Positions 5,086 to 29,408 of a stretch of DNA of 53,434 nucleotides are shown piece after piece; within the stretch, counting starts at the first letter, position 1, and each line of letters starts with the position of its first letter. Both the position numbers and the translations under genes were made by a program. The stretch is from a virus (taxonomy: Duplodnaviria > Caudoviricetes): IMG/VR virus record IMGVR_UViG_3300020470_000012, positions 1-53,434 of that record; one strand, given 5' to 3'. The notes beneath the pieces were generated by a model that saw only the letters and a program-made list of their open reading frames with translations, made no database searches and was not told the DNA's origin.

Positions 5086-5094
5086 TGGTATAAT
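5086..5094 (+). promoter_or_regulatory. Extended -10 promoter
   Basis: TGG-TATAAT upstream of ORF 5119. Confidence 0.5.
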
Positions 5095-5118
5095 AAGTAG
5101 TATAGGGTCGCATAAAAA

Positions 5119-9322: not shown

Positions 9323-9348
9323 ACAAATACTCAGCAAACTGGTATAAT
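9320..9348 (+). promoter_or_regulatory. Sigma70-type promoter
   Basis: TAGACA (9320-9325), 17 nt, TATAAT (9343-9348), with TGG extension. Confidence 0.7.
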
Positions 9349-9371
9349 ATCCATATATTCGATCCATTACA

Positions 9372-9527: not shown

Positions 9528-9528
9528 G

Positions 9529-9536
9529 TATAAATA
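9529..9536 (+). promoter_or_regulatory. T4-type late promoter TATAAATA
   Basis: Exact gp55 consensus in an intergenic position before ORF 9563. Confidence 0.7.
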
Positions 9537-9562
9537 TTACACCACATTTGCTATAGAAATCA

Positions 9563-9772
9563 ATGGGAATGACCACATCTGCGTTGAACGGTGGTGATAA
9601 TATAGTCACACCATTAGAGAGTGATGAGTATGATCCTATAACAGGACAGGGAACAGAAGTAAATCCATCAGATTATTGTCCAGAAGATTATTATGTATCT
9701 CCTTTGGAACAGGATATTCAGATGGTAATTCAGTTGTTGCAAGAGATTTCAGCTAAGTTAGATAGAGACTAA
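9563..9772 (+). CDS. Hypothetical acidic protein, 69 aa
   Basis: ORF track; follows a late promoter. Confidence 0.65.
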   Translation: MGMTTSALNGGDNIVTPLESDEYDPITGQGTEVNPSDYCPEDYYVSPLEQDIQMVIQLLQEISAKLDRD

Positions 9773-9792
9773 AAAACACGGGAAAGAAGCGG

Positions 9793-9800
9793 TCTAAATA
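9793..9800 (+). promoter_or_regulatory. Late promoter variant TCTAAATA
   Basis: Intergenic, upstream of gp25; one mismatch to TATAAATA. Confidence 0.6.
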
Positions 9801-9828
9801 ATATATAATCCGACTTGTAACGCCCTAT

Positions 9829-10230
9829 ATGGCGAAAGTAGACCTTCTTTCACGATCATTCAAAGATATATCCTTTAGTTTTGATTCACACCCCAAAACT
9901 AAGGATATTCTTGTGAAAAGAAATGAAGCAGCAATAAAGTCTGCTTTGAAACATTTGATATTTACCAATGTGGGTGAAAGACCTTTTCAACCCGAACTTG
10001 GAACATCTCTCTCTAGACTTCTATTTGATAATTGCGATTACGGAACTGCGTCCCAAATCTCTGATGAAATTACTAGAGTTATTAAAAAATATGAGGAAAG
10101 AGTTGTATTGAGTCTAGTAGACGTAAATCCTCTTCCAGAAAATAATGCCTTTGATGTTTCTATTGAATTTGAAATTGTCGGAATTCCACATACGCAGACA
10201 ATCGAATTCTATTTGGAAAGCACTAGGTAA
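9829..10230 (+). CDS. gp25: Baseplate wedge subunit gp25
   Basis: FKDISFSF, AIK..L..LI.T..GERPFQPELG and YEERV motifs; position before gp6. Confidence 0.95.
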   Translation: MAKVDLLSRSFKDISFSFDSHPKTKDILVKRNEAAIKSALKHLIFTNVGERPFQPELGTSLSRLLFDNCDYGTASQISDEITRVIKKYEERVVLSLVDVNPLPENNAFDVSIEFEIVGIPHTQTIEFYLESTR

Positions 10231-12113: not shown

Positions 12114-15100
12114 ATGATAAAAGTATCGCAGTTAGTAGATAGTCAATTATCTGACTTTTTTAGACAGGAATATCCTACTTTTGTAAAGTTTTTCGAGGAA
12201 TACTATAAAGCAACTGAGATTGATGGTGCTTCGACTGGTCTTCTACGAAAAATTCAGAAATATCAAAATGCTGATTTTTATAAGGATGGTATTATCCTTG
12301 AGACTACATTAGCTGTTGATATTGATGAAACTCAAGAATACATAGAATTATCACAAAAAACTGATAATAAAGGAAGAGCAATATGGGAAAGGTTTCCTGA
12401 AGAAGGTCTTTTATTGCTAGATGATGGTACAAATAGAGAAATTGTACAATATAAAAATATTTCTTTCGGTACTTTATCTTCTATACGTAGAGGTTCTTCA
12501 GGTTCAATTAAATTAGGTGATTTACTAAACGATAGTACCTTCCTGAATACTACTGGGACTGCTTTTAGTGCAAGTAACACAACTGTTACTAACATTAGCC
12601 ATCTTTTCCTTGCAACTTTATTCAAAAATCTAAAATCTCAGTATTTCTCTGGAATTCCTATTGAAAGACTGAATCAGGATATTTCAGTACCTACAATCCT
12701 AAAGTATATCAAGGATTTCTATGCATCTAAAGGTACAAGTCCTGCAATTGAATTCTTATTCAGAAGTGCATTTAATGATGAGAAGATTTTAGTTCGTTAT
12801 CCAAATGAGCAACTTCTAAAATCATCTGTATCTACATGGTCTGTTGATACCATATTACAGGGAACTCTAATCAAATTTCATGATAATGCCACAGTAGATA
12901 ATCTTCCAGGATTAGTTCTAAAACAAATTACTTATGGTTATGATCAGACAATTGGAGAAGCAACAGCAAATATTGAAAAAGTAATTCCAATCAAATCAGG
13001 AAATGATACTCTTTATAGAATTTTCTTGAATGCAGAGTCTATTATTGGAAATTTTCAACCTGCTAATGAAACAAGAAGTAATTCTACTTTTGGTAGTAAT
13101 AATGAGACTTTAGTTGTTGACTCAACAATAGGATTCCCAGAAATAAACGGTGAATTTTATGTAGAAGGAATAAATGATACAGATGGTATCCCAATATCAT
13201 TTTCATATGCAGAAAAGACAGCTACAGAATTTTATGGTGTAGCTACTAATGCTACAGGTTTTACAGGTGTACCTAAGTCTCAATCAGTATTTGGATCTAA
13301 TATTCTTTACGTAGTTTCTGATTCTCAAGACGATCCATTCAAAGATGGATATACTGCTTCTTTTAGACCTGCTGGTTTGATATCAGAGACTCCTATAACT
13401 GGTAAAGGATTATTTGTAAAAGAAGAAGATGTTGTTGAATTTGGTTTATCTGGTAAGAAACAAGATTCTCCTATCAATTCTTCATGGAGACAGAATGTTC
13501 CTTCAACAGAAGACAACGTAAGAGTAGTTTCATATGCTGGAACTATGGTCAATACTTATATCAGTGGTTCATATATTGTTTCAAGAGGAGTAAACCAAGT
13601 ATTTGAGAATAATTCACATGTATTTGTATCTTCAAATGGATTCCCTGATGTTCTTAGTATTGGTGAGATAAGGCAAGGTCCACATTCTGCATTAGCAGTC
13701 GCATCACAAAGACATCTGAAAAAGATTCCAAAAGTTCCTAGTCTTGGTAAATCAAAGGTAAAACAACCTGATAATGGGACTATAGGTGTAACTATTGATG
13801 GTGTTCCTATTATTTCCTTGACAGGACAGAATACAGAACTTGATGGTCCTATTCTTGGTCAAGGTGGACAGTTAGTTAGTGCTGGTGAACTTAATGATAT
13901 TACTGTAGTAGATGGTGGATTTGGATATACTGCACCACCAAAAGTTATTATCAGTGATGATTTTGGTCAAGGTGCTATTGCTACAGCACAAATATCTGGT
14001 GGAAAGGTAATAGGTGTTACTCTAAGTTCTCCTGGTGCATATCAACAAACTCCAGAAGTAACTATTAGTGCAGGATCTGGTGCTCAGATGACTACTGAGT
14101 TTGCATCCAATAATGTTACTGGAGAAATAAAAAATCTTAATATTATTCAAGCAGGTCAAGATTATACCCAAGTACCAGAAATCGTCATTGTAGACGAATC
14201 TGGAAGGGGTAGAGGAGCAAGATTCGTTGTTAGTACAATTGACCCTACAAGTGGTTCTATATCTGCTATACGAAAAGTTTCTGGTGGATATGATTATGAT
14301 GTATCAAAAACTAAGATTTATATCGTTCCTACTGCATCTGGAGCAACTGTTGAGGCACAACTAACTGAATGGCATAGAGATAATATCAAAGAATATTCAA
14401 GATATTCTGATAAGCATAATGGATATCCTTTCCCTGGTTTAATACCAGAATATCATTCTGCGTACAATTATGTTGGTAATCCTATAGGTATTAGAAATGT
14501 ACTTGGTGATAATATTGTTGCTGGTAATGAGCAAGCAGGAAATCTAGAACACTCACCTATTCTTGGATGGGCATATGATGGTGTTCCAATATATGGTCCT
14601 GTTGGTTATGAGGATCCTTTACCATCACAATCTGGAGATTGGAGTATAAAACGTTTAGAATCATCCTATTTCCTAAAAGATGCACGTAATGCCATTGGTA
14701 TCGTGGCATATCAGATGGGAACATTTACAGAAGATTATGAGTATAAACCAGATGGTGATCCTTTACATCAAGATTTGGATGAGTTTAATGGAAGATTCTG
14801 TGAAACTCCTGAATTTCCATTAGGTAGATATTGTTATTTTACTACTGTTCATTCGAGTAGAGATCCTAATCAAGTAGATAGATATGACATAAAACCAAGA
14901 TTCCCTTATGTTATTGGACCTACTTTTAAATATGCACCAGAATCATCTAACTGGGATTCAACTTCTATATTGAAGAATTTGCCTTCTGATGTTATAAGAG
15001 TAAGAGATGTAAATAATAACTTACCTCAGTTTGGTTCTTTAGTTGGTGCAACAGTATCTAATGTTTCATCAGGATCTATTGATTCTGTTATTGTTGAGAA

Positions 15101-18100
15101 TGCTGGTACAAATTATCAGGATGGCAATCAATTCTTCAATCCTAAATGGGGTACTGGAGATAGATTCTATGTTGATAATACAGATACTCAAGGTGCTGGA
15201 TTTTCAGCAGAAGTTTCTTCTATTCTTCCCAAAGATCCAGATGGTAAGATTGTACATGTAGGTAGTATTGTTGCTAATGATATCATTGGAAAACTTGATT
15301 CTAGACAACAAAGACTAAAAGTTCCTTCTCCTACAATTATTCCAGGTACTAATAGACTGGTTTATAATAGGATATCTGAAGGTGATGAGATTACAGATAA
15401 TACTGTTTTAGAGCAGAGTTTTGAAACTTCCGTTGATATTGATGAAAAAGTAACAAATATTCAACTTCGTGCTAGAAATCTTGAAAATCTTAGCACAGGA
15501 ATGACATTAACACTTGAAGATGAAATAGTATATGTAAGTGGTACTCCAACTAATAATACTAAGTTTGTAAATGTTAGAGTTTCTTCTACAGAGCAATTAT
15601 CTAGTGATTTACCAATAACATCAGGATCACAAAAAGGATTCTATTATCAATATTTAAATGGATCATATGCATTTGATGAAATTTATGTTGATTCTCAAAA
15701 TGTTAGTTATAAGATTGGTAAGATTATAGGACTTGATAGAACTGCAAAGGTAATGCAGCTTGAGATGTATATTAATCCTGTTACTGATAATTACTATACA
15801 TTTACTGTTTCATCTACATTCAATCAGGCATTATATAACAATGCTGGTGGATATGAACATTCAATTAGTGTTGCTGATGTTGGATTTACAGGAATTGCTG
15901 CTGCAGCTGCACTTTATAATGGAACTGGATCAGCAAGTAGATTCTCTTCTTCAATACAATCACCAACTACAGAAACAAATTTATGGGGTGGTGCTAATAA
16001 TTACAACTATTTTGGTGAAGCACGTGCAGGGGATTTTGAATTTTCAAAGCAAGTTCCAGTAATTCGTTCATGGGATTCTTCTAAAGCAGTTCCTCATGGA
16101 TCAGGAGTTACTTTAAAAAGTCAAGTACCTACAGGGGTTATATCTGATTATACTGTAAAGATTTCTGTTGTTGGTGTATCCAGCATGGATGCATGGAATG
16201 TCGGGACTTATATAAAGGGAGCAGATTCTCAATGTGAAGGAAGAGTTGTAAAAGTAGAAAAAACAAGTCCAACTGAAGGTTATCTTTATATACAGGATAT
16301 AAAGTCAGGTCCAAATGCTGGAGACCTTCCTAGGTTTGGAAATTGGGATGGTACTAATTTTACTGGTGAAACTGTTAATGAAATTGGAATTGGTGCAACT
16401 AATACTATAGATGGTGGAGTTATTACGAGTTATAATCCAATAACACAGACCACTACACAACTTACTAAAACAATAGAAAATCTTGATACAATTTTACATG
16501 TAGCAAATCCTGACGCTTTCCCACTCGATAGGTATATTGCTATTGGTGTTGAAAAAATGCGAATTGTCTCTAGAGATCTGGAGAATAAAACATGGACAGT
16601 TGCTAGAAAACAGTTAGGAAGTGCATATCCTACTAGTGGTAGTCACTTAAATGGTACAGTAATTGAGATTTCAAATTCTGCAGGAACATTTACTGCAGGT
16701 TCTGATAAGTATTATGCAACGGTAGATTTATATAATGCTCAGACATTTACTTCATCAAGTACATTCAAAGATCAAGATGACCAAAATATTGATGTAGAAG
16801 AAGCAATATTGAATCCAATTACTGCTGATCAACGTAATATAACATTTGGTCCTACTAATTTTGATTTCTTCAATTTAGGAAATGTTATAAAGATTGGAAC
16901 AGAATTTATTCGTTTAGATGGAGTTGCTGGAAATATATTCCATGCTACTAGGGGATTTAATAATACTACAGCACAAGAACATGCTCATGATAGTTCAATA
17001 ACAAATCAGAGTGAACTTCAAGCTACTGTTACTGTAAGAGAAAAAGAAAATGGTGTTGATATTGGACCTATTTCTCATGGATTAGATGAATCTGATATAG
17101 TTGAAATATTTGGTGATCCATCAGAAGATGAAACTTCTAAAACGTTAGTTGAAGTAAAATTTGATGGTTCTGCTAATAGATTTAGATTTAAGAGTATTCA
17201 TACTAATGATACATTTGAATCTAATCCAAATCTAACTTTTGTATATGGTCATACATATGAATTTGATGTATCTGATCTAAGTAACCAAACTACTATATTA
17301 TCATTCTATAATGATGATTTGTATACTGATGAGTATGCTGTTGACAGAAATGGTACTCCAGGTAATGCTAATGCTAAGGTAACGTTATCGATAACTGATA
17401 CTTCTATTGCAAATTTATTCTATGATAATTCAAATAGTTCTATAACAGATAGTAATCCAAAAGTTAATTTTGTTGAAGATCCTTATAATGTTTCTGGAAC
17501 TTCTATATTCAATGTTACAGAATCTACTTTTGATTATATTGTCAAACGTAGGGTAGAAGGTTCTGCTAGAGGAACTAAAAAGATGGGAGTTGTTACTCCA
17601 AACGTTTTTGGAGAAATTGCTAATGTTAATATTCTAAATCAAGGTTATGGATATGAATCTCTTCCTATCATAAAGGGTATATCTTTAAGAGATGAAGATA
17701 AAATACGTTATACAATTACTGTAGATGAAGATAACGGAGCGATTACTTCAGTTGATGTAGTTTATGGTGGTAAAAGATATATAAGTCCAACAGTATATGT
17801 TATTGGAAATGGAACTGGTGCTAAATTGATTACTGATACTTTAGCTGGATCAGTTCGTACTATTAGAGTAGAAGATGGAGGTCTTGGATATTCAACTGGT
17901 ACTGAATTGCTTTTGGTTGAAGAAGATGAAAGAAATGTAAGAGTTCTTCCATCATCTTCTACTATCGGTAAAGTTATTGGACTCAATATAACAAATCCTG
18001 GTGCTCGTTTCTCCAATAACTTCACAATGGTTCCTGAGACTACTATTCCAACTTCAATGCAGTTGGTAAATCTCGGTAATGATAATCCAGATTCTCCCAA

Positions 18101-21100
18101 GAGATATGAGTTTGGTGAAAGAGTATATCAAGGTGATGTTAATAATCCTTTAGTTACTGGTATAGTTGTTGATTATAATGAAATAAATCAGACTCTTAGA
18201 GTAAAGAGTGTTGTTGGGGAATTTTTGGTAGGAGTACAACTAAGAGGATATCTTTCTGGAACTATATCTACACCTCAGACAGTCAATGCTGCTTCTATCC
18301 AGTCTACTATTGATGCTATTACTAGTATTAGTGGATTCTTCTCAGATGACTTAGGTAAACTAAGTACGTCATCTCAGAAGATTCAGGATTCCTATTTCTA
18401 TCAGGATTTCTCTTATGTTATCCGTTCTCAGATACCAGTATCCGACTGGAGAGAAATTATCAAGGATTCTACTCATCCTGCAGGTTTCTTAGTATTTGGT
18501 GAAGTTATTCTCGATTCTTCAGCAAGTGTAACTACTGTTCCTCTTGGTGGTAGTACAACTTGTCCTCCAAATGTACACAAATTTACTTTTGATACTAAAG
18601 CAGATATTGTAGCTGATTATACATCATCATATTCATGGGGAACAACATTGTTCTTGAGAAATGGTGCAGATATTAAAGTTGGAGATTCATTCAAATTCTA
18701 TCAGGATAGTTTTGATTATGAATTGAAATGGAAGGCAATAAATGCTGCTGGTGATATTATTGAGGGTAAATTAGTTGATCAGAAGATATATTATATAACT
18801 GATGCAATAAATGATGGATTAGGTAATGCACATGTAAAAATATCTTTGTATCATCCAAACGATACATTTGCTGACGCTGAACATAATAGAGAAAGATTTG
18901 ATTTATCTTTACAACCAACTTTAGGTTCTTATCTTCCAAACTTTACTTGTGATTCACAGAATCCATATAAACAGATTACTATTGAAGTATTCAAAGAGTT
19001 TATTGATATTGATCCTACAATTCCAATGGAATTGACAGATTCACTCAAGACTGTTCAAATCAATAAGTTCTTTAGAATGGTTGAGAGACCTGGTATGGGT
19101 TCTCTAATATCTGCTGAAGGAACAGTTGCTATTGATCTATCATATGTTGATGATATCACTGCTAATATTGATGGTATCAAGAAAATATATGATATTAGAG
19201 AAGAAGGATCTTTAATTTCTCCTTGGAGTGATAATTCATTACTTGTTACTATTGATGGTGTAGGGCAGGAACCTGGAAAGGCATTTACAATTATCAATGA
19301 TAGAAAGATTGAGTCATTAGAAATTACAAGTACTGGTGATGGTTCATTAGAGTATGATTCTTGGAAGATAACTAGTGGTTCAACAGATATTGATAATGGT
19401 GTTACTGTTGTAAGTGGTACTGCTGATGTTAAGCAAGTATATAAAGACGAAGAATTCATTTATATAACTTCGCAAGGTGTTCCATCATATACAGCAACTC
19501 TAGGTCCTTATAGTGGACTAAACCCCTCTTTCCAAGACTATATCAAGAGAATACCAACTGAGGTATTTGCTCCTGTAGATAAGGAACCTACTCCATTAGG
19601 AGTTATTGGAATATTTGCTAATGGAACCCTTTTACAAAACAGTACATTAGAAACAACATATAATAATAAAAATAAGTGGACTATAACTGAGGTTGGATCT
19701 AGCCCACTATCTGATGAATTTGGTGGCATGGCAAATACTAGAGGGCAGTATTATCAGGCATGTAATCCAATAGGATTGAGAAGACAGTTGAATGATAATA
19801 TGACATCATCTGGAGCTTATGCAGAAGATGCTACAACTCCAACACATTCACCTATCCTTGGATGGATGTTTGATGGTACTCCAATATATGGACCTTATGG
19901 ATATACAGATCCTCATTCTGCTATATCTGCTGTAAAGAGAATAGAAAGTGGATATTCTACTAGACAAATTGGTACTAGAAATACTTTTATTGATGGAACA
20001 ATTCTTACAGGAGATGATATTGGTCCCCCAGTAGACTCAGTTGAATTTAATGTAGTAGGATTTGTTCCGTTTGCTGGTGCTACTGATGAATTCCTTCCTG
20101 GTGCTGTACTTACTCAAGTAAACAGTCAAACAGATGATACTGTAGTTTCTGGTGTAAGTGGAATTGTTCAATCATTTGATCCTATTACAGGAAAAGTTCT
20201 AATCGCATCTGTGAATGGTGTATTCAGCCAAAATATGTGGGTCAAGAGTCCTACTGCTTGGTGTCAGATTAGTAACGTTCCTATCATATACAATATTGGT
20301 TACTTTGTAGAAGATTATAGTTATAGTTCAACAGGTGCAGACCTTGATGTTTATAATGGAAGATTCTGTGTAACTCCAGAATTCCCTGAAGGTAGATATT
20401 GTTATTTTGCAACTATAAAGAATGAAAATTATACTTATTCTACAACTAGTACTCCAGAATTGAATGCAGCATATCCATTTGTAGTTGGTCCGAATTTATA
20501 CCATAAGTTCTATCAAGAAAATCAACTTACTAAAGGTGAATTAGCATCTAAGATTATATTTGCAAATCCACCTAAAGAAATTATTGATAGTTCTACAGGT
20601 CATACTCAAACTCAGAAGTTTGTAGCTAGAAAATTTGGATTCTCTGATGTACCTAACAATAGGAATTTCAATAAGAAATTTGTTGATATTTCTCCTCAGT
20701 TTGATGGATATAAGACAACATTTGCATTACAATATAATGCTCAACAACCAAACTTTGCTCCTACTGATCCAATAGAACCAAGTGAAAATGCTTTAGTGTT
20801 CATGGATGGTATTATTCAGATACCTGGAGTTGATAAATCATATACCATAGATGATGTTGCCAATACAATAACTTTCAGTACTCCTCCTAAGAGAATTGGT
20901 AAGTTGATTAATATGAGTGAAATTGCTGGAATTCTAAATTTCAGAGAAAATGAGATTGTAGTTGGTAAAACAAGTGGAGCAACAGGAAGAGTTATTAATA
21001 GAACTCCTCTTGGATATGAAGGAAAGGGTGTACTAAAAGTTGAAGTACTAACTAAAGATTTTGTTGATGGGGAAAATATTACTGCTCCAGCAGTTTCTGG

Positions 21101-24100
21101 TGATGTAGAACCAAGAACAGGAAAGGATACAACTGGTGCTGTAATTCAATTAGGTAATCTTAATGTAAGCGGAGCTTCTTATGATCCTAATACAGGAGAA
21201 ATGATTCTTACAGTTAGTGATGTGAATCATTTGGTTGAAGATTTGAATGGAAATCTAATCAGTACTCCTATTACTACAAATGATGTTCTTAATATTAGAT
21301 ATAAATCTATAACATTTACTTGTTTCCAAGATAACCATCAAACTGAGCATAGTTATCCACGAGCAGGAGATCCAGCTCATCGTCAAAATTTGAATATTAC
21401 AGCAGTAGGTGCTCAGACTATTACTGTGAATGTAGGTGTATCTCCAAATAAAACAACTCATCTTTTTGTCAATGCATCTAATCCTGCAGTATTAGTCAAT
21501 GGAAAGACATTTGGTCGTCAAGAAATTGATACTCCTATAAACCTAAAAGGAACAGTAACTGCTAAGGATAGATTCTTAGATGCTGCAAACCTTCTTGAAG
21601 CAAACAAACAATTGATTGCTGAAGAATCTGTTTTAGCAATGTTGGATTATCCTGCATATAAAGGATCATTCTCAGTAGCATCAAATCAAGGTGGTAATTA
21701 TACACACCGTTTTGAAAGTGGTGTTACTAATGCTATTACTGCTAATGATGGTTCACAATATACTGCTGTTACCAATACAACTTATAACCCTGCATCTGGA
21801 TTCCTAACATTAGATATTGGAACTCATACTTTGACTACTGCTAATACAATTACTATTGATGATGGTGGAGTCACATTTAGTTGTGCTAAGGATAATAATG
21901 CTACAAATCATGCATATCCAAGAGCAACTGATCCTGCATCTGGGCAGTCATTAGCAATTACTGCTGCTGTTGGTGATACTATTACTGTAAATGTTGGATC
22001 ATCCCCATTTAATAATCAAGATTGTATTGATGATGTAAAGGATGTTATCTCTGCTATTGTTGATAATATTAGATTTGGTGGAAATGATGAAGTTTATGAT
22101 GCAGCAGACCTTTATGTAAATGGAGGGGTATTACAGCATCTTGTAGGTGAGGAAGAACCATCTAAATTAGCATTCAGGTGGGCAAAGGATCTTTGTGTTC
22201 TTGCTATGCAGAACAAGTTGAATGATTATAATAAACTTGGTACTGCTAATGGTTATTCTTCAATTGATAATGCTTCTACCAATAAGATGATTGATGGAGC
22301 AAATCTAATAGAATGGAATAAAGATCTAATTGCCCATGAAGCATTAGAAAGAATGTCTGCTCAATATCCTACTTACACTTACAATAGTGGATATACATCT
22401 GATGATTGTTTAGATGATTTGAAAGATACTCTTGATTGTATGATCTTCAATATGACTTATGGTGGAAATAATAAGACTTGGGATGCTGCAAACTTCTATG
22501 CTCAAGGTGCATATATTGTAACTGGAAAAGAGACAGAAATTGTTTATGCATTCAATGCTGCAAAGGATATTTCTTCTGAAGTTTGTCGTAATATTCTTGT
22601 GAATATTACAGGAAGTCATGGATTCACTCAGCATACTAATGCTACAATCACTGATTCTACAATTACTTCATTCACACCATCTGCTGCAACCTATAATCCA
22701 ACATCAGGTGAAATGGTTCTAACAATAGCCAATCATGGATTAACTTCAGCAAATACTATTGAGATAGATACAGATTCTTTAGAATTTACTTGTTCTATGG
22801 ATAATAATGCTACTAAGCATACCTATCCTAGATCTTCAGATCCTTCTAACAGTAAAGCATTAGAAATTCTCAATTCTACTACAAATACTATTACTGTAAA
22901 TGTTGGATCATCTCCTTTAGAAACTTATAATATAACTGATGCTGATTATAATGAGACTAGTGGTGATATGGAGATTACTATTGGTGATCACAACTTTATT
23001 GAAGGTTCTGGTATAAAGTTAGCTGCCAATTCACTAACCTTTACTTGCCTAAAAGATTTCAATGTAACTGAACATTCATATCCTCGTACAACAGATCCAG
23101 TTTATGATAAGTCTATTCCAATCAAGAGTATTGGTACAATACCATATAGTATAAGTGATGCGGATTATAATCCAGAAACAGGAATAGTTACTTTGACTGT
23201 ACCTGGTCAATCATTTACTAATCCAACAAGGCATACTGCAGAGAGTGCTTCTTATAATCCTTTAACAGGTGAATTGACTGTCACAGTTGGTACTAATAAT
23301 ACCTTTAAAGTTTCTGACATGATTAGGATTGCTCCTAATTCAATGTTCTTTACATGTACTATGGATGCTAATGCTACACAACATTCATATCCTCGTCTTT
23401 CCGATCCTGTAGCAAATAAGTGGTTGCCTATTAGTGGAGTATCTACTTCTTCATTCACTGTAAATGTTGGTACATCTAATATTAGTGGATATGATGTATC
23501 AGATTCTACATATAATCCTACAACTGGAGATCTAACTTTAGATATTGGTCCTCATAATTTAGACATAGGAACATCAATTAGAATTGGAAAGGATTCTTTG
23601 AGATTTACATGTGATATGGATAATAATGGTAGTTATCATACTTATCCAAGATCAACTGATCCTTTCTATGATAAAGCAGTCAATATTAGTGCTAAATCAT
23701 CTACCACGATAACTGTCAATGTTGGAACTACTCCTCTTGCAAGTCATAATGTTACTGATGCTACCTATGATACAACTTCAGGTAATCTGCAGTTGGAGAT
23801 TGGATCTCATACCTTACAGGTTGGTGAGAGTATTAGATTGCAACCAGAATCTCTAACATTTAGTTGTGCATTCAATGGTGCTTCAGGTGCTGCTGCTGAG
23901 AAGGCATATCCTCGTGCAACAGGTGCTACTACCAATACTGGTGCTGATTATGCATATAATACTGCTCTTGAAATTATTTCAATAACTTCAACAAAAATTA
24001 CCGTAAATGTAAATGGTGGTCAAGGTGCTATAAGCAATAGTGATGTTCATACATTTGTATCAGCAACTTCTGGTGCTGTGGTCTCAGGTGGTAATTATCC

Positions 24101-27100
24101 ACACACATATGTAAATCAATCTAATACATTTACACCAACTGGTGCATCATATAATCCAACAACAGGTTTTATGACACTAACTGTGAATGATCATAAGTTT
24201 GGTAATGGCGATCATATAAGAATTGCTGATAATTCCATTGTAATGACATGTACTCATGGTAGTGGGCAGAAATCATATCCAAGAATTAGTGATCCTGTTA
24301 GTGGTAAGTGGATACCAGTTTCTAATGTAACTGCAAATACATTTGATGTTCAAGTTCTAGATTCTGCTCCATCTACTAATACTACTCCTCACACATTTAT
24401 TTCTGCACAAACTAATTGTATAGAAAGAGCTGTTGTTAGTACAGGTGGAAATTACGCACATACATTTATTGATGCACTTGCTGGAGGAATTGAGAAAGCA
24501 ACTCAATTGGTAAAATTAGATGATAATGCATTGATGTTCCAATGTGCTATGGATGATTATGCAACAAATCATACTTATCCTCGTCCTTCTGATCCATATA
24601 ACTCAAGATGGCTTCCTATAAGTGGAGTTGATGGAGATAATTTTGATATTCAAATTGGAGTTTCTCCAAATAAATCTAAACATAAATTTATAACTGCAGA
24701 ACCTAATAGTCTAAAAATACAAGATGGTAAAATTACAATCAATGTAGGAAGTTCATCTTTACCTACTGATCATCACCCTCATACATTTGTAAGAGCAACT
24801 GATGGTGCATTGATTAGTGGTGGTAGTTATACACATTCATTCAGTTCTGCTAAGGATAATTGCATTACTGCAAGAACTATATTGCCTACTTTAGCTCCAA
24901 CTGATGCAACATATGATGCTACTACTGGAAACTTAGTAATTACATCTAAGGATCATGGATTAACAACTAATGATAGAATTAGTATTACTCCAAATTCAAT
25001 GAACTTTACATGTTCAATGGATGGCAATTCAACAGAGCATAGTTATCCTCGTAAGTCTGATCCAGTTGCTGCTGCTGTAATACCTGTTGCAACAATCAAT
25101 AATTCTGATACATTTACAGTGAATGTAGGTGCTTCACCAACAGTAAATCATAATGTTTCTAATGCAACTTATGATTCTGTTACAGGTAATATGATACTTA
25201 CTATTGGAAATCATACTTTGAATAAAGGGACATCAATCAAGTTAGCAGATAATTCACTAACATTTACATGTGCTAAAGATGGTAATGCTACTAATCACAC
25301 ATATCCCAGAACAGATATAATCAATAAAAATATTGATACTGCTTCTTATAATCCTGTTACAGGTATATTGAGTATTACCAGTACTGGTCATGGATTCTCT
25401 AATGGAGAAACTGTAAAGATTGCTAATAACTCTATTACGATGAAATGTTTGATGGATGGTAACTCAGTAAATAAAAATTATCCAAGATCAACAGATCCTA
25501 TTAGTGATAAATGGGTTGAAGTACAAAATGCACTTACAGATACATTTGATATATTTGTTGGTAAATCTCCTTTAGTCAAATATACACCTGGTCCTGGAAC
25601 TACATATGATCCTAATACAGGTCTTGTAGTTCTCAACATAGGACCACATAATTTAGTTGGTGAGAAGAAATTTACTCCTGCTGCTGGTACAACATACAAT
25701 CCTAATACAGGTATTCTGTCTGTTAGACATGTAGATCATGGACTAATTGTTGGTGATCAGATTAGAATAGCACCTAATGCAGTTACTTTCACATGTTTGG
25801 AAGATAATAATCAGACTAATCATTCTTATCCACGTCCTTCTGACCCTGTTGCTAATAAAGTAATAGACGTTGTTGCTGTGACTGCTGATACATTTGATGT
25901 TCAAGTTTTAGATACTATACCTTCTACTAACGTTACAGATCATACATTTGTATCTGGTATTGCTAATAGCATCACAAAGGCAGGTCATTCTATTAAACTT
26001 GCTGCTGATGCATTGAAGTTTACTTGTGCTAAAGATAATCACGCAACATTCCATACATACCCAAGACCAAGTGATCCTAATTTCAATACTGCAATCGACA
26101 TAAAAGACGTTACTGATACAACTATAACAATACAAGTATTGAATACTATTCCATCTACTAACACCTCAGATCATATATTCATTGAGGCAACTGCTGATTC
26201 AGTTATTGCTGGTGGTAATTATACACATACATTTGTATCAGCAACCACTAATGCAATTAGTCATAGAAAAGATAATGCATATGATAATTCTATTGAGATT
26301 ATTCAGGATGGATCACTTCATACTGTAACAGATGCCACTTATAATCCAATAACAGGAAAAATGGTAGTTACTGTTCCTACTCATGGATTTAGTAATGGTG
26401 ATCATATCAAGTTTAATAATGGTTCCTTGAAGTTTGAATGTACATTTGATACTACTATTGTTCAATCCTATCCAAGACCAACTGATCCTTACAGTAATAA
26501 GTGGTTATCTATAACTTGGATTGATAATGATACGTTTGAAGTCTTTGTAGGAAAATCTAGTAACACCACTAAACATACATTTGTAACTGCAGACACAGAT
26601 GGTCTAACAAGAAATAATGGTCAAATTACAATCAATGTTGGGGTTGCTGAAGTTGCTGAACAGTATACACATACATTTGTATCAGCAACTCCTAATGCTG
26701 TAATTTCTGGTGGTAATTATGCACATACATTTGTAAGTGCCTATAGCAATGCAATTAAAGTTCTTGGTTATGATACTAATGATTGTGCTGATGTAGTTTC
26801 CGCTATAGCATCACTCAATAGTATTGTTACTAATGCAATTACAACTCCATCATCCTTATCAAGTGTTGTAAGAACTCCTCCTAATGCATATCCATTGAAA
26901 TATACAAATTCTGATAATTTGGTATTTGATAATGATATTGCAATAGATCCTGCTTCAAGAAATTATACTGTGTCTTGTGCTGATGTTGCATCTTCTATCA
27001 GTACTTTGATGGATATCATTATCAATACTATTGATAATCCAGCATCTTTTGCTTCTGTTGTTAGGACTCCTAAGAGATCTTATATTGAAAAGAAAGGAAT

Positions 27101-29408
27101 ATTCCAAGAGTTCTTTGCATATTCTAATGGTAAATATGCTATCTTAGATGAAATTGATATTACATCTTCCGCAACAACATTTGTTATGACGCAAGATGGA
27201 AAATTAGTAATACCTAATATATCTGAACAGATTGTTGTTACTGTCAATGGTGTTGTTCAAGAATTTGGACAAGCATATGTTGTCAATGAGTCTCTAATTG
27301 AATTCTATAAACCAATTGCAGCAGGTTCTGATTTACAGATTATATATTGGTATGGTAGAGATTTGGAGAAAGTTCTCAAGGGTTATAACGTACCTCTCTA
27401 TGAACCAAGTTACATTAAGAGAGACAGTACTGGTGCTCCTATTCTCTTTACTACTGAGAGTGGAATACCAACAAATAAGAGAATTAGAACTCTTCCATTA
27501 GAAGCATATCCTATTTACGAATTCTTCAGACTAGGAGATAATATCAAGATAGATGGAGAAAATGCTGAAAGAGAGCTTATAGATCTTTCTAACAGAGATA
27601 TTATTGAATGGGAGAAGAAAATTGGTACTAATGAATATTCACTTGATGCTGCTACTGGTATTCTAGGTTCTCCTATAGAGATTAGATTTGAAACTTATGG
27701 CAATCAATCAACTTCTGGATTTATATCTGGAACTAAAGTTGTATATGACAATAATGGAAATAGTGATATTCCTGGATTGACTAATGGAACAACATATTAT
27801 CTTGGATATACTTATACAACTAAAGGAGTCAAGTTATTTGATAACTACCTAGATTCTATTGGTGGTGGAACAAATTCCATAGCAATATCTCCTGGAACAG
27901 GAGTTCATAAGTTTCTACTCGAAACTGATTTATCTGGTCTAAAACAGACACAATTCAAGACTTCTGATTATACTGGTGAAATTAGAGGACGTGAAGCTAC
28001 CTTTACTGCAAGGGTTAGATTTACAATGCTTCTATCTGATTCAACTGCATATACCACTCCAGGAACAATTATGTTTAGTGGTGGTCAATCTGTTGCATCA
28101 GTAGTTCAGGATCTTGGTAATAATAAAGTAGAGATTCAAATATATCCTGATAGAATTCTTGCTGATGGAGCAACAATAACAACTGATCTTGGTGGATCTA
28201 ATTCTGTAACCTTGACTTCTAAGGAGAATGGTTATGTTTATGAAATTGATTCTCTAACTGGATCATTCCCAACTGGATTAGATTATGATACTGCACCTAT
28301 TCTTATAATCAAGGCTGCAGAAACTGATAACGGTGGATTTGCAAGAGCACATGCTGAAATTGATCAGAATAAACAGATTTCTAAATGTGTTGTTGATGAA
28401 CCTGGTGAAAATTATTTCCAAGTACCAGAAGTTCTTGTTACCAGAGCATATAAGCATATTACTCAAACATATCCTCTTGCTCTAGTAAGAAATCAATATA
28501 ATTTCTGGTCATCCTTTGATACTACATTGAGAACTACTATGGTTCTTGATGCCAAGCAACTTACTGTTAGTTTTGATACTACAATAACTACTACACCACT
28601 TACAAAAGCTGGTCAAGAAGTTACAATATTCCGTACTGATGAGATTGTTGATGATCTCTTAGCTGATGATTCATCAAGAGTATATGATTATCATGGTTCA
28701 ACTGATCCTGCATTCCCAACAGAATCTGCATCTGGTATACCAAATCAGGTTTCTATAGGTAATTTGAAATTATTCCCAACATTCCAATCTTTTGAAGAGA
28801 ATAAGTTCAATGTAGATAATACATTAACTATTGGTGCTCTTGATAATAAGTTTGGATCATTAAGAATCAAGGATGTTGCTGATAGATTCTATTCTTCATT
28901 ATATGAAGATGCAAACGTTGCAGGACATCAGCAGATAAGATTTGATGCTACATGCCATACCATGATAAGAGAATTTGCTGGAAAATTCTCTGTAGCTGGT
29001 TCTATTGGAAATAATTTTATTAATTTAGAAGGTGTTCAAGGATTCAACTATATGACAGTTGAAGGTAATACTTTCTGGTTGACTGAGGATATGGCAATCT
29101 ATGAGGAAAGAACATTTGTTATTGTTGGTTATGTGGATAAGATTATTGATTCCAACACATTTATTCTAAGATTGAATGTTGGTCAAAATCTCTTATCTGG
29201 AACCAATATAAGTAATGTAGCAAATACTGTTATGGTATCCATTGCTTCTCAGGTTTCTGGAGAAATAGAAACAGGTAAGGAACGTCTTGCCTATGATCAA
29301 ATAGATTGGGTAAATAAGAGGTTGCTTCTTACACAACCACTAACCCATAATTATAATGTAGGGGAGTCGATCAGAACTGCCCGACCTATCCGCTTAGGAT
29401 CTACTTAG
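12114..29408 (+). CDS. gp7: Giant baseplate wedge initiator gp7-like protein (5764 aa) with YHYH-like domains and nested repeats
   Basis: N-terminal EYPTFVKFFEEYY and KYIKDFYASKGT...FLFR; IQDSYFYQDFSYVIRS...HPAGF; position between gp6 and gp8. Confidence 0.88.
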   Translation: MIKVSQLVDSQLSDFFRQEYPTFVKFFEEYYKATEIDGASTGLLRKIQKYQNADFYKDGIILETTLAVDIDETQEYIELSQKTDNKGRAIWERFPEEGLLLLDDGTNREIVQYKNISFGTLSSIRRGSSGSIKLGDLLNDSTFLNTTGTAFSASNTTVTNISHLFLATLFKNLKSQYFSGIPIERLNQDISVPTILKYIKDFYASKGTSPAIEFLFRSAFNDEKILVRYPNEQLLKSSVSTWSVDTILQGTLIKFHDNATVDNLPGLVLKQITYGYDQTIGEATANIEKVIPIKSGNDTLYRIFLNAESIIGNFQPANETRSNSTFGSNNETLVVDSTIGFPEINGEFYVEGINDTDGIPISFSYAEKTATEFYGVATNATGFTGVPKSQSVFGSNILYVVSDSQDDPFKDGYTASFRPAGLISETPITGKGLFVKEEDVVEFGLSGKKQDSPINSSWRQNVPSTEDNVRVVSYAGTMVNTYISGSYIVSRGVNQVFENNSHVFVSSNGFPDVLSIGEIRQGPHSALAVASQRHLKKIPKVPSLGKSKVKQPDNGTIGVTIDGVPIISLTGQNTELDGPILGQGGQLVSAGELNDITVVDGGFGYTAPPKVIISDDFGQGAIATAQISGGKVIGVTLSSPGAYQQTPEVTISAGSGAQMTTEFASNNVTGEIKNLNIIQAGQDYTQVPEIVIVDESGRGRGARFVVSTIDPTSGSISAIRKVSGGYDYDVSKTKIYIVPTASGATVEAQLTEWHRDNIKEYSRYSDKHNGYPFPGLIPEYHSAYNYVGNPIGIRNVLGDNIVAGNEQAGNLEHSPILGWAYDGVPIYGPVGYEDPLPSQSGDWSIKRLESSYFLKDARNAIGIVAYQMGTFTEDYEYKPDGDPLHQDLDEFNGRFCETPEFPLGRYCYFTTVHSSRDPNQVDRYDIKPRFPYVIGPTFKYAPESSNWDSTSILKNLPSDVIRVRDVNNNLPQFGSLVGATVSNVSSGSIDSVIVENAGTNYQDGNQFFNPKWGTGDRFYVDNTDTQGAGFSAEVSSILPKDPDGKIVHVGSIVANDIIGKLDSRQQRLKVPSPTIIPGTNRLVYNRISEGDEITDNTVLEQSFETSVDIDEKVTNIQLRARNLENLSTGMTLTLEDEIVYVSGTPTNNTKFVNVRVSSTEQLSSDLPITSGSQKGFYYQYLNGSYAFDEIYVDSQNVSYKIGKIIGLDRTAKVMQLEMYINPVTDNYYTFTVSSTFNQALYNNAGGYEHSISVADVGFTGIAAAAALYNGTGSASRFSSSIQSPTTETNLWGGANNYNYFGEARAGDFEFSKQVPVIRSWDSSKAVPHGSGVTLKSQVPTGVISDYTVKISVVGVSSMDAWNVGTYIKGADSQCEGRVVKVEKTSPTEGYLYIQDIKSGPNAGDLPRFGNWDGTNFTGETVNEIGIGATNTIDGGVITSYNPITQTTTQLTKTIENLDTILHVANPDAFPLDRYIAIGVEKMRIVSRDLENKTWTVARKQLGSAYPTSGSHLNGTVIEISNSAGTFTAGSDKYYATVDLYNAQTFTSSSTFKDQDDQNIDVEEAILNPITADQRNITFGPTNFDFFNLGNVIKIGTEFIRLDGVAGNIFHATRGFNNTTAQEHAHDSSITNQSELQATVTVREKENGVDIGPISHGLDESDIVEIFGDPSEDETSKTLVEVKFDGSANRFRFKSIHTNDTFESNPNLTFVYGHTYEFDVSDLSNQTTILSFYNDDLYTDEYAVDRNGTPGNANAKVTLSITDTSIANLFYDNSNSSITDSNPKVNFVEDPYNVSGTSIFNVTESTFDYIVKRRVEGSARGTKKMGVVTPNVFGEIANVNILNQGYGYESLPIIKGISLRDEDKIRYTITVDEDNGAITSVDVVYGGKRYISPTVYVIGNGTGAKLITDTLAGSVRTIRVEDGGLGYSTGTELLLVEEDERNVRVLPSSSTIGKVIGLNITNPGARFSNNFTMVPETTIPTSMQLVNLGNDNPDSPKRYEFGERVYQGDVNNPLVTGIVVDYNEINQTLRVKSVVGEFLVGVQLRGYLSGTISTPQTVNAASIQSTIDAITSISGFFSDDLGKLSTSSQKIQDSYFYQDFSYVIRSQIPVSDWREIIKDSTHPAGFLVFGEVILDSSASVTTVPLGGSTTCPPNVHKFTFDTKADIVADYTSSYSWGTTLFLRNGADIKVGDSFKFYQDSFDYELKWKAINAAGDIIEGKLVDQKIYYITDAINDGLGNAHVKISLYHPNDTFADAEHNRERFDLSLQPTLGSYLPNFTCDSQNPYKQITIEVFKEFIDIDPTIPMELTDSLKTVQINKFFRMVERPGMGSLISAEGTVAIDLSYVDDITANIDGIKKIYDIREEGSLISPWSDNSLLVTIDGVGQEPGKAFTIINDRKIESLEITSTGDGSLEYDSWKITSGSTDIDNGVTVVSGTADVKQVYKDEEFIYITSQGVPSYTATLGPYSGLNPSFQDYIKRIPTEVFAPVDKEPTPLGVIGIFANGTLLQNSTLETTYNNKNKWTITEVGSSPLSDEFGGMANTRGQYYQACNPIGLRRQLNDNMTSSGAYAEDATTPTHSPILGWMFDGTPIYGPYGYTDPHSAISAVKRIESGYSTRQIGTRNTFIDGTILTGDDIGPPVDSVEFNVVGFVPFAGATDEFLPGAVLTQVNSQTDDTVVSGVSGIVQSFDPITGKVLIASVNGVFSQNMWVKSPTAWCQISNVPIIYNIGYFVEDYSYSSTGADLDVYNGRFCVTPEFPEGRYCYFATIKNENYTYSTTSTPELNAAYPFVVGPNLYHKFYQENQLTKGELASKIIFANPPKEIIDSSTGHTQTQKFVARKFGFSDVPNNRNFNKKFVDISPQFDGYKTTFALQYNAQQPNFAPTDPIEPSENALVFMDGIIQIPGVDKSYTIDDVANTITFSTPPKRIGKLINMSEIAGILNFRENEIVVGKTSGATGRVINRTPLGYEGKGVLKVEVLTKDFVDGENITAPAVSGDVEPRTGKDTTGAVIQLGNLNVSGASYDPNTGEMILTVSDVNHLVEDLNGNLISTPITTNDVLNIRYKSITFTCFQDNHQTEHSYPRAGDPAHRQNLNITAVGAQTITVNVGVSPNKTTHLFVNASNPAVLVNGKTFGRQEIDTPINLKGTVTAKDRFLDAANLLEANKQLIAEESVLAMLDYPAYKGSFSVASNQGGNYTHRFESGVTNAITANDGSQYTAVTNTTYNPASGFLTLDIGTHTLTTANTITIDDGGVTFSCAKDNNATNHAYPRATDPASGQSLAITAAVGDTITVNVGSSPFNNQDCIDDVKDVISAIVDNIRFGGNDEVYDAADLYVNGGVLQHLVGEEEPSKLAFRWAKDLCVLAMQNKLNDYNKLGTANGYSSIDNASTNKMIDGANLIEWNKDLIAHEALERMSAQYPTYTYNSGYTSDDCLDDLKDTLDCMIFNMTYGGNNKTWDAANFYAQGAYIVTGKETEIVYAFNAAKDISSEVCRNILVNITGSHGFTQHTNATITDSTITSFTPSAATYNPTSGEMVLTIANHGLTSANTIEIDTDSLEFTCSMDNNATKHTYPRSSDPSNSKALEILNSTTNTITVNVGSSPLETYNITDADYNETSGDMEITIGDHNFIEGSGIKLAANSLTFTCLKDFNVTEHSYPRTTDPVYDKSIPIKSIGTIPYSISDADYNPETGIVTLTVPGQSFTNPTRHTAESASYNPLTGELTVTVGTNNTFKVSDMIRIAPNSMFFTCTMDANATQHSYPRLSDPVANKWLPISGVSTSSFTVNVGTSNISGYDVSDSTYNPTTGDLTLDIGPHNLDIGTSIRIGKDSLRFTCDMDNNGSYHTYPRSTDPFYDKAVNISAKSSTTITVNVGTTPLASHNVTDATYDTTSGNLQLEIGSHTLQVGESIRLQPESLTFSCAFNGASGAAAEKAYPRATGATTNTGADYAYNTALEIISITSTKITVNVNGGQGAISNSDVHTFVSATSGAVVSGGNYPHTYVNQSNTFTPTGASYNPTTGFMTLTVNDHKFGNGDHIRIADNSIVMTCTHGSGQKSYPRISDPVSGKWIPVSNVTANTFDVQVLDSAPSTNTTPHTFISAQTNCIERAVVSTGGNYAHTFIDALAGGIEKATQLVKLDDNALMFQCAMDDYATNHTYPRPSDPYNSRWLPISGVDGDNFDIQIGVSPNKSKHKFITAEPNSLKIQDGKITINVGSSSLPTDHHPHTFVRATDGALISGGSYTHSFSSAKDNCITARTILPTLAPTDATYDATTGNLVITSKDHGLTTNDRISITPNSMNFTCSMDGNSTEHSYPRKSDPVAAAVIPVATINNSDTFTVNVGASPTVNHNVSNATYDSVTGNMILTIGNHTLNKGTSIKLADNSLTFTCAKDGNATNHTYPRTDIINKNIDTASYNPVTGILSITSTGHGFSNGETVKIANNSITMKCLMDGNSVNKNYPRSTDPISDKWVEVQNALTDTFDIFVGKSPLVKYTPGPGTTYDPNTGLVVLNIGPHNLVGEKKFTPAAGTTYNPNTGILSVRHVDHGLIVGDQIRIAPNAVTFTCLEDNNQTNHSYPRPSDPVANKVIDVVAVTADTFDVQVLDTIPSTNVTDHTFVSGIANSITKAGHSIKLAADALKFTCAKDNHATFHTYPRPSDPNFNTAIDIKDVTDTTITIQVLNTIPSTNTSDHIFIEATADSVIAGGNYTHTFVSATTNAISHRKDNAYDNSIEIIQDGSLHTVTDATYNPITGKMVVTVPTHGFSNGDHIKFNNGSLKFECTFDTTIVQSYPRPTDPYSNKWLSITWIDNDTFEVFVGKSSNTTKHTFVTADTDGLTRNNGQITINVGVAEVAEQYTHTFVSATPNAVISGGNYAHTFVSAYSNAIKVLGYDTNDCADVVSAIASLNSIVTNAITTPSSLSSVVRTPPNAYPLKYTNSDNLVFDNDIAIDPASRNYTVSCADVASSISTLMDIIINTIDNPASFASVVRTPKRSYIEKKGIFQEFFAYSNGKYAILDEIDITSSATTFVMTQDGKLVIPNISEQIVVTVNGVVQEFGQAYVVNESLIEFYKPIAAGSDLQIIYWYGRDLEKVLKGYNVPLYEPSYIKRDSTGAPILFTTESGIPTNKRIRTLPLEAYPIYEFFRLGDNIKIDGENAERELIDLSNRDIIEWEKKIGTNEYSLDAATGILGSPIEIRFETYGNQSTSGFISGTKVVYDNNGNSDIPGLTNGTTYYLGYTYTTKGVKLFDNYLDSIGGGTNSIAISPGTGVHKFLLETDLSGLKQTQFKTSDYTGEIRGREATFTARVRFTMLLSDSTAYTTPGTIMFSGGQSVASVVQDLGNNKVEIQIYPDRILADGATITTDLGGSNSVTLTSKENGYVYEIDSLTGSFPTGLDYDTAPILIIKAAETDNGGFARAHAEIDQNKQISKCVVDEPGENYFQVPEVLVTRAYKHITQTYPLALVRNQYNFWSSFDTTLRTTMVLDAKQLTVSFDTTITTTPLTKAGQEVTIFRTDEIVDDLLADDSSRVYDYHGSTDPAFPTESASGIPNQVSIGNLKLFPTFQSFEENKFNVDNTLTIGALDNKFGSLRIKDVADRFYSSLYEDANVAGHQQIRFDATCHTMIREFAGKFSVAGSIGNNFINLEGVQGFNYMTVEGNTFWLTEDMAIYEERTFVIVGYVDKIIDSNTFILRLNVGQNLLSGTNISNVANTVMVSIASQVSGEIETGKERLAYDQIDWVNKRLLLTQPLTHNYNVGESIRTARPIRLGST
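21160..26765 (+). repeat. 15 copies of a ~110-aa coding repeat (A.Y(N/D)P.TG...H......I.....(F)TC..D.....H.YPR..DP...ITVNVG...HTF)
   Basis: Counted by eye in the translation: 1 isolated, 1 permuted, and blocks of 7 and 6 nested copies. CATACATTTGTATCAGCAAC also recurs at DNA level. Confidence 0.85.

Follow-up and report, generated by a model that had tools for sequence, protein, structure and literature searches.

A predicted gp7-like baseplate wedge protein of a T4-like cyanomyovirus with two blocks of probably nested beta-barrel domains

The stretch of DNA analysed here, called the window throughout, is the 53,434-nucleotide IMG/VR virus record IMGVR_UViG_3300020470_000012. Its central feature is one unbroken open reading frame (ORF) that encodes a gp7-like protein of 5764 amino acids (aa) and is the sole long ORF between its two ends (Table 1). 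Between aa 3520 and 4876 this protein displays 13 copies, designated A to M, of a beta-barrel domain, as yet unclassified, with a length of about 80-112 aa. The evidence set out below indicates that this region probably consists of two tandem blocks in which copies of this one small domain are recursively nested inside each other.

The N terminus of the protein (aa 8-234) matches the Pfam family PF23786 Baseplate_wedge, marginally, with 27.9 bits against a cut-off of 27, and YHYH domains as well as PHROG 'baseplate wedge subunit' families are also matched. The ORF lies in a baseplate gene cluster, flanked by gp25-, gp6- and gp8-like genes; in Prochlorococcus phage P-SSM4 the order is gp6, gp7, gp9, the unnamed ORF PSSM4_082 and gp8. 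The repeat region matches P-SSM4 gp7, a 'baseplate wedge initiator' of 7312 aa (E 1e-149), and a 7041-aa protein of Synechococcus phage S-E7. A tblastn search with the repeat returned 367 phage records, every one a cyanophage or marine virus and all below 60% identity, and a megablast search one 60-base match only. Homologues are labelled 'baseplate wedge initiator', 'structural protein' or 'hypothetical' in their records, the RefSeq name 'virion structural protein' being annotation only. Because of the wedge domain, the gene order and the repeat matches to P-SSM4, S-E7 and marine phages, the source virus is, as judged from its sequence, a T4-like cyanomyovirus and the protein a gp7-like baseplate wedge. 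The name gp7, which a prediction made earlier from the letters of the window (the original prediction) had given it, is therefore right.

The repeated domain was described with two profile hidden Markov models (HMM). The first was built from the four copies that the original prediction had named as uninterrupted (F, G, L and M), and the second, HMM2, has 112 positions and draws on 188 fetched loci, from which 80 non-redundant full copies were taken. Domain starts were found 13 times in the region, twice upstream of it (aa 3017 and 3219) and nowhere else in the window. The body of a copy would comprise an a0 strand, a YNPxTG hairpin, an FTC...YPR segment and two strands ending in TVNVG, with one closing strand of the form H-x-F per copy lying beyond its body. 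Copies end at three preferred lengths, HMM positions ~80-84, 101-106 and 111-112, and the bodies of A, D, E, H and J end at positions 80-85. The a0 strands themselves (HNVTDA, YNITDA, HTAESA, FTPTGA and others) look like the H-x-F closing strand and stand at the same spacing after the preceding TVNVG.

Four of the copies, B, C, I and K, are interrupted, and on HMM2 their pieces are complementary. B is split into aa 3605-3673 (HMM positions 1-69) and 4202-4244 (69-111), C into aa 3678-3703 (1-26) and 4130-4201 (27-101), and K into aa 4496-4515 (6-25) and 4622-4709 (25-112). I comes in three pieces, aa 4346-4400 (1-55), 4716-4733 (~56-70) and 4835-4875 (71-112), the 18 residues between K and M being its missing middle. 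When rejoined, each of these copies gives one full-length hit: B over positions 1-111 (126.9 bits), C over 1-100 (98.0 bits), K over 6-112 (140.8 bits), and I with 138.4 bits as three pieces, against 106.1 bits as two pieces and 126.0 bits for the composition control. Joins across different break classes gave two partial hits; within a class the test is blind, since B/I and C/K swaps also produce single hits, and partners were assigned by order. The breaks lie in four loops, after the H-x-L turn (positions 25-27), after YPR (55/56), before ITINVG (69-71) and after TVNVG (80-85), the last being the class of A, D, E, H and J. Inserts also act as hosts, with C lying within B, and L within K within I. 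The original prediction had claimed that the copies are nested rather than tandem and resume in last-in-first-out order, had named the same four interruption sites, and had given C as its example, opening at aa 3678-3703 and resuming at 4130-4201; all of this is borne out, and the outer copies did rejoin into complete domains as it had anticipated.

The same pieces could be read as decayed remnants of tandem copies, disordered or paired with their linear neighbours and not structurally nested. In line with this, the first piece of C is short, scores only E 0.04-0.06 alone and is modelled with a predicted local distance difference test score (pLDDT) of 61-68, and a related IMG/VR contig (L003) has first pieces that are never resumed. 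Decay does not account for pieces that are exactly complementary and rejoin into single full-length hits, nor for the 83% and 72% identity of the K pieces to one contiguous domain in an orthologue. The ratio of nonsynonymous to synonymous substitution rates (dN/dS) of the split pieces (0.21-0.39) resembles that of the continuous copies (0.18-0.63), the exception being the first piece of C with 0.75 (n=29); apart from that piece, the split pieces are under constraint like whole copies. The structural model of K with L is also confident (see below), and, by reasoning, tandem duplication at any offset would give copies that are complete, and would not leave a lone start and a lone end on either side of complete ones. 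We consider decay very improbable and the four splits B, C, I and K almost certainly real.

Both blocks have a collinear counterpart in L004, an orthologue from metagenomic data, with ~72-83% identity (block 2: 157/216, 34/41, 116/162 and 73/101; block 1: 170/211 and 414/529). In the pairwise alignment L004 has a single clean gap of 107 aa, which corresponds to aa 4515-4621 of the window and is exactly domain L. Its K is uninterrupted (HMM positions 6-114, E 8e-40), and the junction reads GPHNL|KVGQNIKLAG in L004 and GPHNL|VGEKKFTP...ANSITK|AGHSIKLAA in the window. Among the matches listed, the relatives of K in other phages (48-59% identity) are likewise all uninterrupted and span HMM positions 1-110 or more, and for this reason the insertion of L is taken to be derived in the lineage of the window. 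The expansion by insertion that the original prediction had put forward thus finds its direct case in L, which is absent from a collinear relative with an unsplit K. No nucleotide direct repeat of at least 5 bases was found at the L junctions. L was also considered as a recent copy of a neighbour and this was rejected, its best match within the protein being G with 53% identity against 55-58% in other phages. The array would evolve as whole domain cassettes are gained or lost at permissive loops, one such event, L into K, separating the phage of the window from its nearest sampled relative. A second whole-domain difference is found at 21675-21986 (aa 3188-3291), where a GGNYTHRF closing strand and the body of the upstream unit U2 are missing from L004. 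U2 looks circularly permuted, with its closing strand ahead of its body, and S-E7 has the same order.

Repeats favour misassembly, and we weighed an artefact of assembly or of repeat misreading with the behaviour of L003 in mind. In this contig (aa 1329-1954, against aa 4258-4884 of the window) identity jumps inside domain H, from ~34% to 98% (544/553) from aa 4332 onward, and its upstream part has four first pieces without resumption; the switch stems either from recombination between repeats of the array or from an assembly that is chimeric. An artefact is nevertheless hardly credible for the window, given that the ORF stays open over 5764 codons, that L004 has the same architecture minus L, that a contig from another sample, L005, shows no difference from L004 across the 741 aa of block 1, and that the same grammar is found in the sequenced isolates P-SSM4 and S-E7.

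Closing strands were located with a 7-column position-specific scoring matrix (PSSM) of the H-x-F strand. Block 1 has seven (H at aa 3979, 3997, 4093, 4116, 4190, 4223 and 4241) for seven domain starts, and block 2 has six (H at aa 4610, 4687, 4705, 4821, 4853 and 4871) for six. Since closing strands equal domain starts, nesting would run deeper than three levels. Under a strict rule, in which every strand closes the most recently opened copy, the host of each resumed piece is the copy then uppermost on the stack, and nothing stays open at the end of either block. The resulting parse is A[B[C[D[E[F]][G]]]] for block 1, with six levels, and H[I[J[K[L]]][M]] for block 2, with five. When strand counts were permuted among complete segments, a balanced and consistent parse arose in 285 of 20000 permutations for block 1, in 709/20000 for block 2, and in 5/20000 for both together. 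The result is stable at PSSM thresholds 4-6 and fails at 7-8, where the strand of C is lost. The parse of block 2 reproduces the original prediction exactly. For block 1 the predicted depth of six stood, while its inner order did not: G sits in D, as D[E[F]][G], and not beside F in E. Similarly, the number of closing strands does equal that of the opened domains (7/7 and 6/6), as had been claimed, whereas the GGNY-type motif attributed to them (GGNY or GGSY) occurs in just 5 of 13 strands, H-x-F being common to all. The parse to its full depth is probably correct. That distant strands close A, D, E, H and J would follow from counting and grammar.

The same grammar was followed in the relatives. 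P-SSM4 gp7 has 11 starts, 11 strands and 5/5 resumptions that fit, with three stacked GGNYxH.F strands exactly where three copies are open, immediately ahead of the resumption of the outermost one; strands and starts also balance in L004 and, its upstream unit excepted, in S-E7. In a wider set of 63 non-redundant relatives the rule is obeyed at 113 of 198 resumptions, where permutation gave a mean of 47.9 (sd 4.9, maximum 63 in 500 trials), so that the grammar of the window is present in P-SSM4 and, statistically, in the wider set. Of 289 unique resumed pieces, 217 could be paired, last in first out, with a partner no more than 6 HMM positions away, and in the 155 informative cases last-in-first-out fits 110 and first-in-first-out 12. 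Breaks cluster at HMM positions 25-30, 46-51, 55-57 and 69-72, and inserts have a median size of 108 aa, about one domain length. Two IMG/VR contigs, L037 and L041, parse strictly to depths of 9 and 8 with nothing left over.

We then turned to structure predictions. The K[L] unit was modelled with AlphaFold2 from an alignment of 35 units of identical architecture, with a pLDDT of 90.2, a predicted template modelling score (pTM) of 0.77, and a pLDDT of 94-96 for the isolated first hairpin of K. In structural alignments of this model against the PDB, 43 of 50 rows lie on model residues 27-31 to 134-137, which is L, while 7/50 span residues 1 to 212-214, with 65-82 residues aligned. One and the same barrel, that of SpNOX, can be superposed in either placement (Z 5.3 with 83 aligned residues and Z 5.0 with 82). 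Because of the full-span rows and this double fit, the model is consistent with the two K pieces forming one barrel like that of L. Over 210 columns the model also superposes with an independent one in BFVD, from another cyanophage (E 1.5e-22, TMq 0.70), and BFVD hits include 'Endosialidase' entries. For the first and last pieces of B, complex prediction gave an interface score (ipSAE, computed from predicted aligned errors) of 0.38 against 0.01 for the best control, which is weak support; in these runs contacts agree to at least 92% and the partner pLDDT is at least 53. As for calibration, 58 of 80 solved complexes passed the mark, as did 2 of 110 mismatched pairs; with an ipSAE of 0.60 or under it was passed by only 7/80 solved complexes and by both of these mismatches. 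The block-1 model was computed from an alignment of 41 rows, with 40 long homologous regions. It agrees that a short-form barrel takes a distant strand and disagrees on which one. The ties of E, F and G run last-in-first-out, yet to other strands than the grammar assigns: those involved are the last three, which the grammar gives to A, B and C. Of the sub-block predictions, which had been proposed as a check of the nested reading, that of K[L] is confident and that of block 1 less so.

Several observations weigh against recursive nesting to the full depth, or against parts of the proposal. The closing strand of C, HKFITA, is the weakest at 6.1 bits. The HMM hits to F and G run unbroken over the full length (1-111), which would allow each to own both of its strands, and U1 and U2 are out of order, with a closing strand ahead of the copy it would close. 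In the relatives the grammar fails at 85 of 198 resumptions (62 mismatches and 23 without a host), and just 21 of 61 ORFs are fully consistent, in a set with many truncated loci, where a single overlooked token upsets the parse of all that follows. The block-1 model reaches only a pLDDT of 79.6 and a pTM of 0.41, with the strands beside F and G below pLDDT 50 and the KITINVG strand of B at 37, and over residues 274-741 it ties E, F and G to residues 741, 721 and ~690. In the K[L] model the second strand of K is confidently modelled without J. The outer levels, at which A, D, E, H and J would be closed, are predicted from the sequence grammar, as is the placement of gp7 on the virion baseplate from homology. 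Finally, the fold matches are middling, with Z ~8 or less, and a common barrel arrangement could suffice for them.

Some of these points also speak for a shallower alternative with three levels only, B[C[D-E-F-G]] and I[J-K[L]][M], in which A, D, E, H and J would be tandem short barrels and GGNYxHTF an extra hairpin of a long-form copy. The three preferred copy lengths suit it, as do the contiguous 1-111 hits of F and G and the confident second strand of K. Besides, the next a0 resembles a closing strand at the same spacing (HTAESA at aa 3707 scores 7.1 bits), and runs of closing strands only are found behind a long form in three relatives (L147-L149). A lax parse that auto-closes short forms also fits 138 of 198 resumptions, although it is permissive by design and the comparison of counts is thus unfair. 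What this alternative leaves unaccounted for is the balance of strands and starts in both blocks (the 5/20000 permutations), the same balance in P-SSM4 (11 and 11) and in L004, and a strand placement in the 63 relatives that beats all 500 permutations; the block-1 model, moreover, carries the short-form E to a far C-terminal strand, with the a0 of F counted with F. Altogether, we judge shallow nesting unlikely, if well short of negligible, and retain recursive nesting in two blocks as the probable reading.

As to the fold, structural alignment of the models points to a small six-stranded barrel. The phi92 endosialidase barrel (4hiz) aligns with a single copy of the K[L] model at Z 7.5 (root-mean-square deviation, rmsd, 2.5; 81 aligned; 20% identity), and the endosialidase barrel aligns with the block-1 model at Z 7.7 (rmsd 2.3, 81 aligned). 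E1 FCCH domains match the block-1 model at Z 8.1 (4p22_B; rmsd 2.7, 77 aligned) and Z 8.0 (9mc4_A), followed by FNR-like and EF-Tu domain-2-like barrels at Z ~5-6. The nearest named ESM Atlas cluster (score 0.92, 170 shared features) has 73% of its members annotated as E1_FCCH and is mainly viral. Foldseek returned nothing against the PDB at E 1e-3 or better, the endosialidase barrel being matched at E 0.016. No Pfam family was found for the repeat with the protein halves (E up to 0.01) or with nine single copies (E up to 10), and the same searches gave no match to an endosialidase barrel family; E1_FCCH (PF16190) was matched neither by the protein nor by the nine copies. Three sets of candidate matches were set aside. 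A Pfam 'Phycobilisome' row (E 0.0022, under the cut-off) lies in a helical region and was attributed to chance; single-copy Pfam hits such as SH3_YKFC_2nd and Cthe_2159 (E up to 10) each occur in just one of nine copies; and a profile of the K[L] unit against PDB sequences returned only WD40 and carbonic-anhydrase rows (E 0.0019-0.22), again by chance.

Table 1. Features of the gp7-like ORF and its flanking genes (window coordinates; HMM, positions on the domain profile)
Feature	Position	Strand	Evidence or remark
gp25-like gene	9829-10230		flanks the gp7-like ORF
gp6-like gene	10233-12110		directly upstream of the gp7-like ORF
gp7-like giant baseplate wedge protein, 5764 aa (predicted)	12114..29408	+	Pfam, gene order, P-SSM4 gp7 homology
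U1 (aa 3017-3131), helical insert, then closing strand and U2 (aa 3188-3304); outside both blocks	21162..22025	+	HMM, PSSM
Domain A body, outermost of block 1	22671..22910 (aa 3520-3599, HMM 1-80)	+	HMM2, E 6.5e-30; pLDDT 82-97
Domain B piece 1	22926..23132 (aa 3605-3673, HMM 1-69)	+	HMM; pLDDT 80-89
Domain C piece 1, YNPETG hairpin	23145..23222 (aa 3678-3703, HMM 1-26)	+	HMM; pLDDT 61-68
Domain D body	23232..23477 (aa 3707-3788, HMM 1-81)	+	HMM2
Domain E body	23490..23732 (aa 3793-3873, HMM 1-81)	+	HMM2
Domain F with own closing strand, innermost, level 6	23745..24065 (aa 3878-3984)	+	HMM2 1-111; strand H at 3979
Closing strand GGNYPHTY, putatively of E	24087..24119 (aa 3992-4002)	+	inferred from grammar; pLDDT <50 in block-1 model
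Domain G with own closing strand	24129..24407 (aa 4006-4098)	+	HMM2 and PSSM
Closing strand GGNYAHTF, putatively of D	24444..24476 (aa 4111-4121)	+	inferred from grammar
Domain C piece 2 with closing strand HKFITA	24501..24716 (aa 4130-4201, HMM 27-101)	+	HMM2, rejoin
Domain B piece 2, KITINVG strand and closing strand HTFVRA	24717..24797 (aa 4202-4228)	+	HMM2, rejoin; complex prediction weak
Closing strand GGSYTHSF, putatively of A, end of block 1	24819..24851 (aa 4236-4246)	+	inferred from grammar
Domain H body, outermost of block 2	24894..25145 (aa 4261-4344, HMM 2-85)	+	HMM2
Domain I piece 1, ends after YPR	25149..25313 (aa 4346-4400, HMM 1-55)	+	HMM2
Domain J body	25332..25565 (aa 4407-4484, HMM 3-80)	+	HMM2
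Domain K piece 1	25581..25655 (aa 4490-4514)	+	HMM, L004 alignment; pLDDT 94-96 in K[L] model
Domain L, 107 aa, inserted in K, missing from L004	25656..25976 (aa 4515-4621)	+	clean alignment gap; HMM2 5-104
Domain K piece 2 with closing strand HIFIEA	25977..26189 (aa 4622-4692)	+	HMM2, L004 alignment, rejoin
Closing strand GGNYTHTF, putatively of J	26211..26243 (aa 4700-4710)	+	inferred from grammar
Domain I piece 2, DNAYDNSIEIIQDG	26259..26312 (aa 4716-4733, ~HMM 56-70)	+	three-piece rejoin
Domain M with own closing strand	26319..26609 (aa 4736-4832, HMM 1-101)	+	HMM2 and PSSM
Domain I piece 3, QITINVG strand and closing strand	26616..26687 (aa 4835-4858)	+	HMM2, rejoin, PSSM
Closing strand GGNYAHTF, putatively of H, end of block 2	26709..26741 (aa 4866-4876)	+	inferred from grammar
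gp8-like gene	29464-31116		downstream flank of the gp7-like ORF

Around the blocks, helical motifs containing cysteine (DCIDDVKDV..., DCLDDLKDT..., DCADVVSAI..., SCADVASSI...) occur twice before block 1 (~22008-22655, aa ~3299-3514) and twice after block 2 (26769-27100, aa ~4886-4995), and both barrel blocks may sit within a helical module; another helical stretch of ~60 aa is inserted behind the closing strand of U1. Beyond the gp8-like gene lie two more giant ORFs (31152-39788, 2878 aa; 39995-48067, 2690 aa), whose matches are to PHROGs without a known function and to families named 'virion structural protein'. The 2690-aa protein has YHYH-type segments in common with gp7, and copies of the barrel domain are absent from both. 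G+C drops from ~0.40 (1-10000) to ~0.33-0.37 (10001-53434), at ~10 kb where the baseplate genes start.

In the recursive arrangement that we favour, the chain would run outward through the N-terminal parts of successive copies and return, last in first out, through their remaining parts, whole copies occupying the four permissive loops, one behind the H-x-L turn, one behind YPR, and one on each side of the (I)TVNVG strand, the second of these leading on to the closing strand. Both ends of each block would then adjoin, making it a self-contained excursion from the wedge, and the chain would cross every junction twice, which should leave the junctions double-stranded and stiff. Inner copies would have to fold first and outer ones close later, that is, from the inside out. 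Two compact or rod-like multi-barrel projections per gp7 are likely on this basis, with presumably six gp7 per baseplate by analogy with T4, and they would present lectin-like barrels to the host surface. The branched, tree-like array on the baseplate that the original prediction had drawn from the nesting may be another form of such projections. A role of the barrels in host-surface adhesion is suggested by fold likeness and baseplate location. A bolder version can be envisaged, in which every barrel is locked by a late-returning strand, folding is strictly inside-out with the outermost copy as a mechanical clamp, the blocks form reconfigurable receptor-binding 'antlers' on the baseplate, and cassette swaps in the four loops tune host range. 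We consider this version possible but on the doubtful side; if true, plugging in cassettes would be a mode of tail-fibre-like diversification unlike tip swapping or tandem repeat expansion. Should the barrels bind host-surface glycans, the array would be a candidate determinant of cyanophage adsorption.

Similarities to known systems exist at several levels. T4 gp7 and the giant gp7 of cyanophages resemble the protein of the window in the N-terminal wedge domain and the gp25-gp6-gp7-gp8 order. The giant gp7 of P-SSM4 also has a homologous repeat region, and P-SSM4 and S-E7 share the nested grammar; T4 gp7 is ~1000 aa long and is not known to have this array. Among structural matches to a single copy, the barrel of phage endosialidases (phi92 4hiz; K1F/NF) ranks first or nearly so, with a Z below that of safe fold identity. 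It is single-copy, whereas the gp7 barrels would form a nested array; the endosialidase barrel is itself inserted in a propeller and binds sialic acid. The likeness to the FCCH domain of the E1 ubiquitin-activating enzyme (PF16190), in structure and in the Atlas, offers leads only, its functional context being unrelated. In the main text of the open-access literature, with subscription journals and supplements outside the scope, we found no description of such an architecture in phage baseplate or fibre proteins.

Nested domain insertion as such is already known, and the gp7 array would be a further, viral instance of it. In the sources as far as they were available to us, deep self-insertion is rare, and the closest known analogue, and the one well-described case found, is Si3 of the cyanobacterial RNA polymerase beta' subunit (rpoC2). 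Si3 comprises eight sandwich-barrel hybrid motifs, of which numbers 2-5 are formed from distant parts of the chain and not in simple tandem, and its array is a rod of 150 Å (PMC10895346). An ECOD survey describes the six-level recursive insertion in rpoC2 Si3 as an exceptional case (PMC13114784). As far as these accounts go, Si3 and gp7 are alike in that one small beta domain family acts recursively as host and as insert, and the depth of Si3 equals the six levels of block 1; the depths of 9 and 8 in L037 and L041 exceed both. Si3 differs in its fold family and in its place, the trigger loop of an enzyme as against a virion baseplate protein, and it has solved structures, while the gp7 array is known from sequence and models. 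The same principle would now be found in a virion protein of abundant marine T4-like cyanophages, in which linear domain callers register just 'partial' copies. The gp7 array also varies between close relatives, with L present or absent and depths of up to 8-9, and such architectures would provide a natural series for the study of nested folding, loop tolerance and array evolution.

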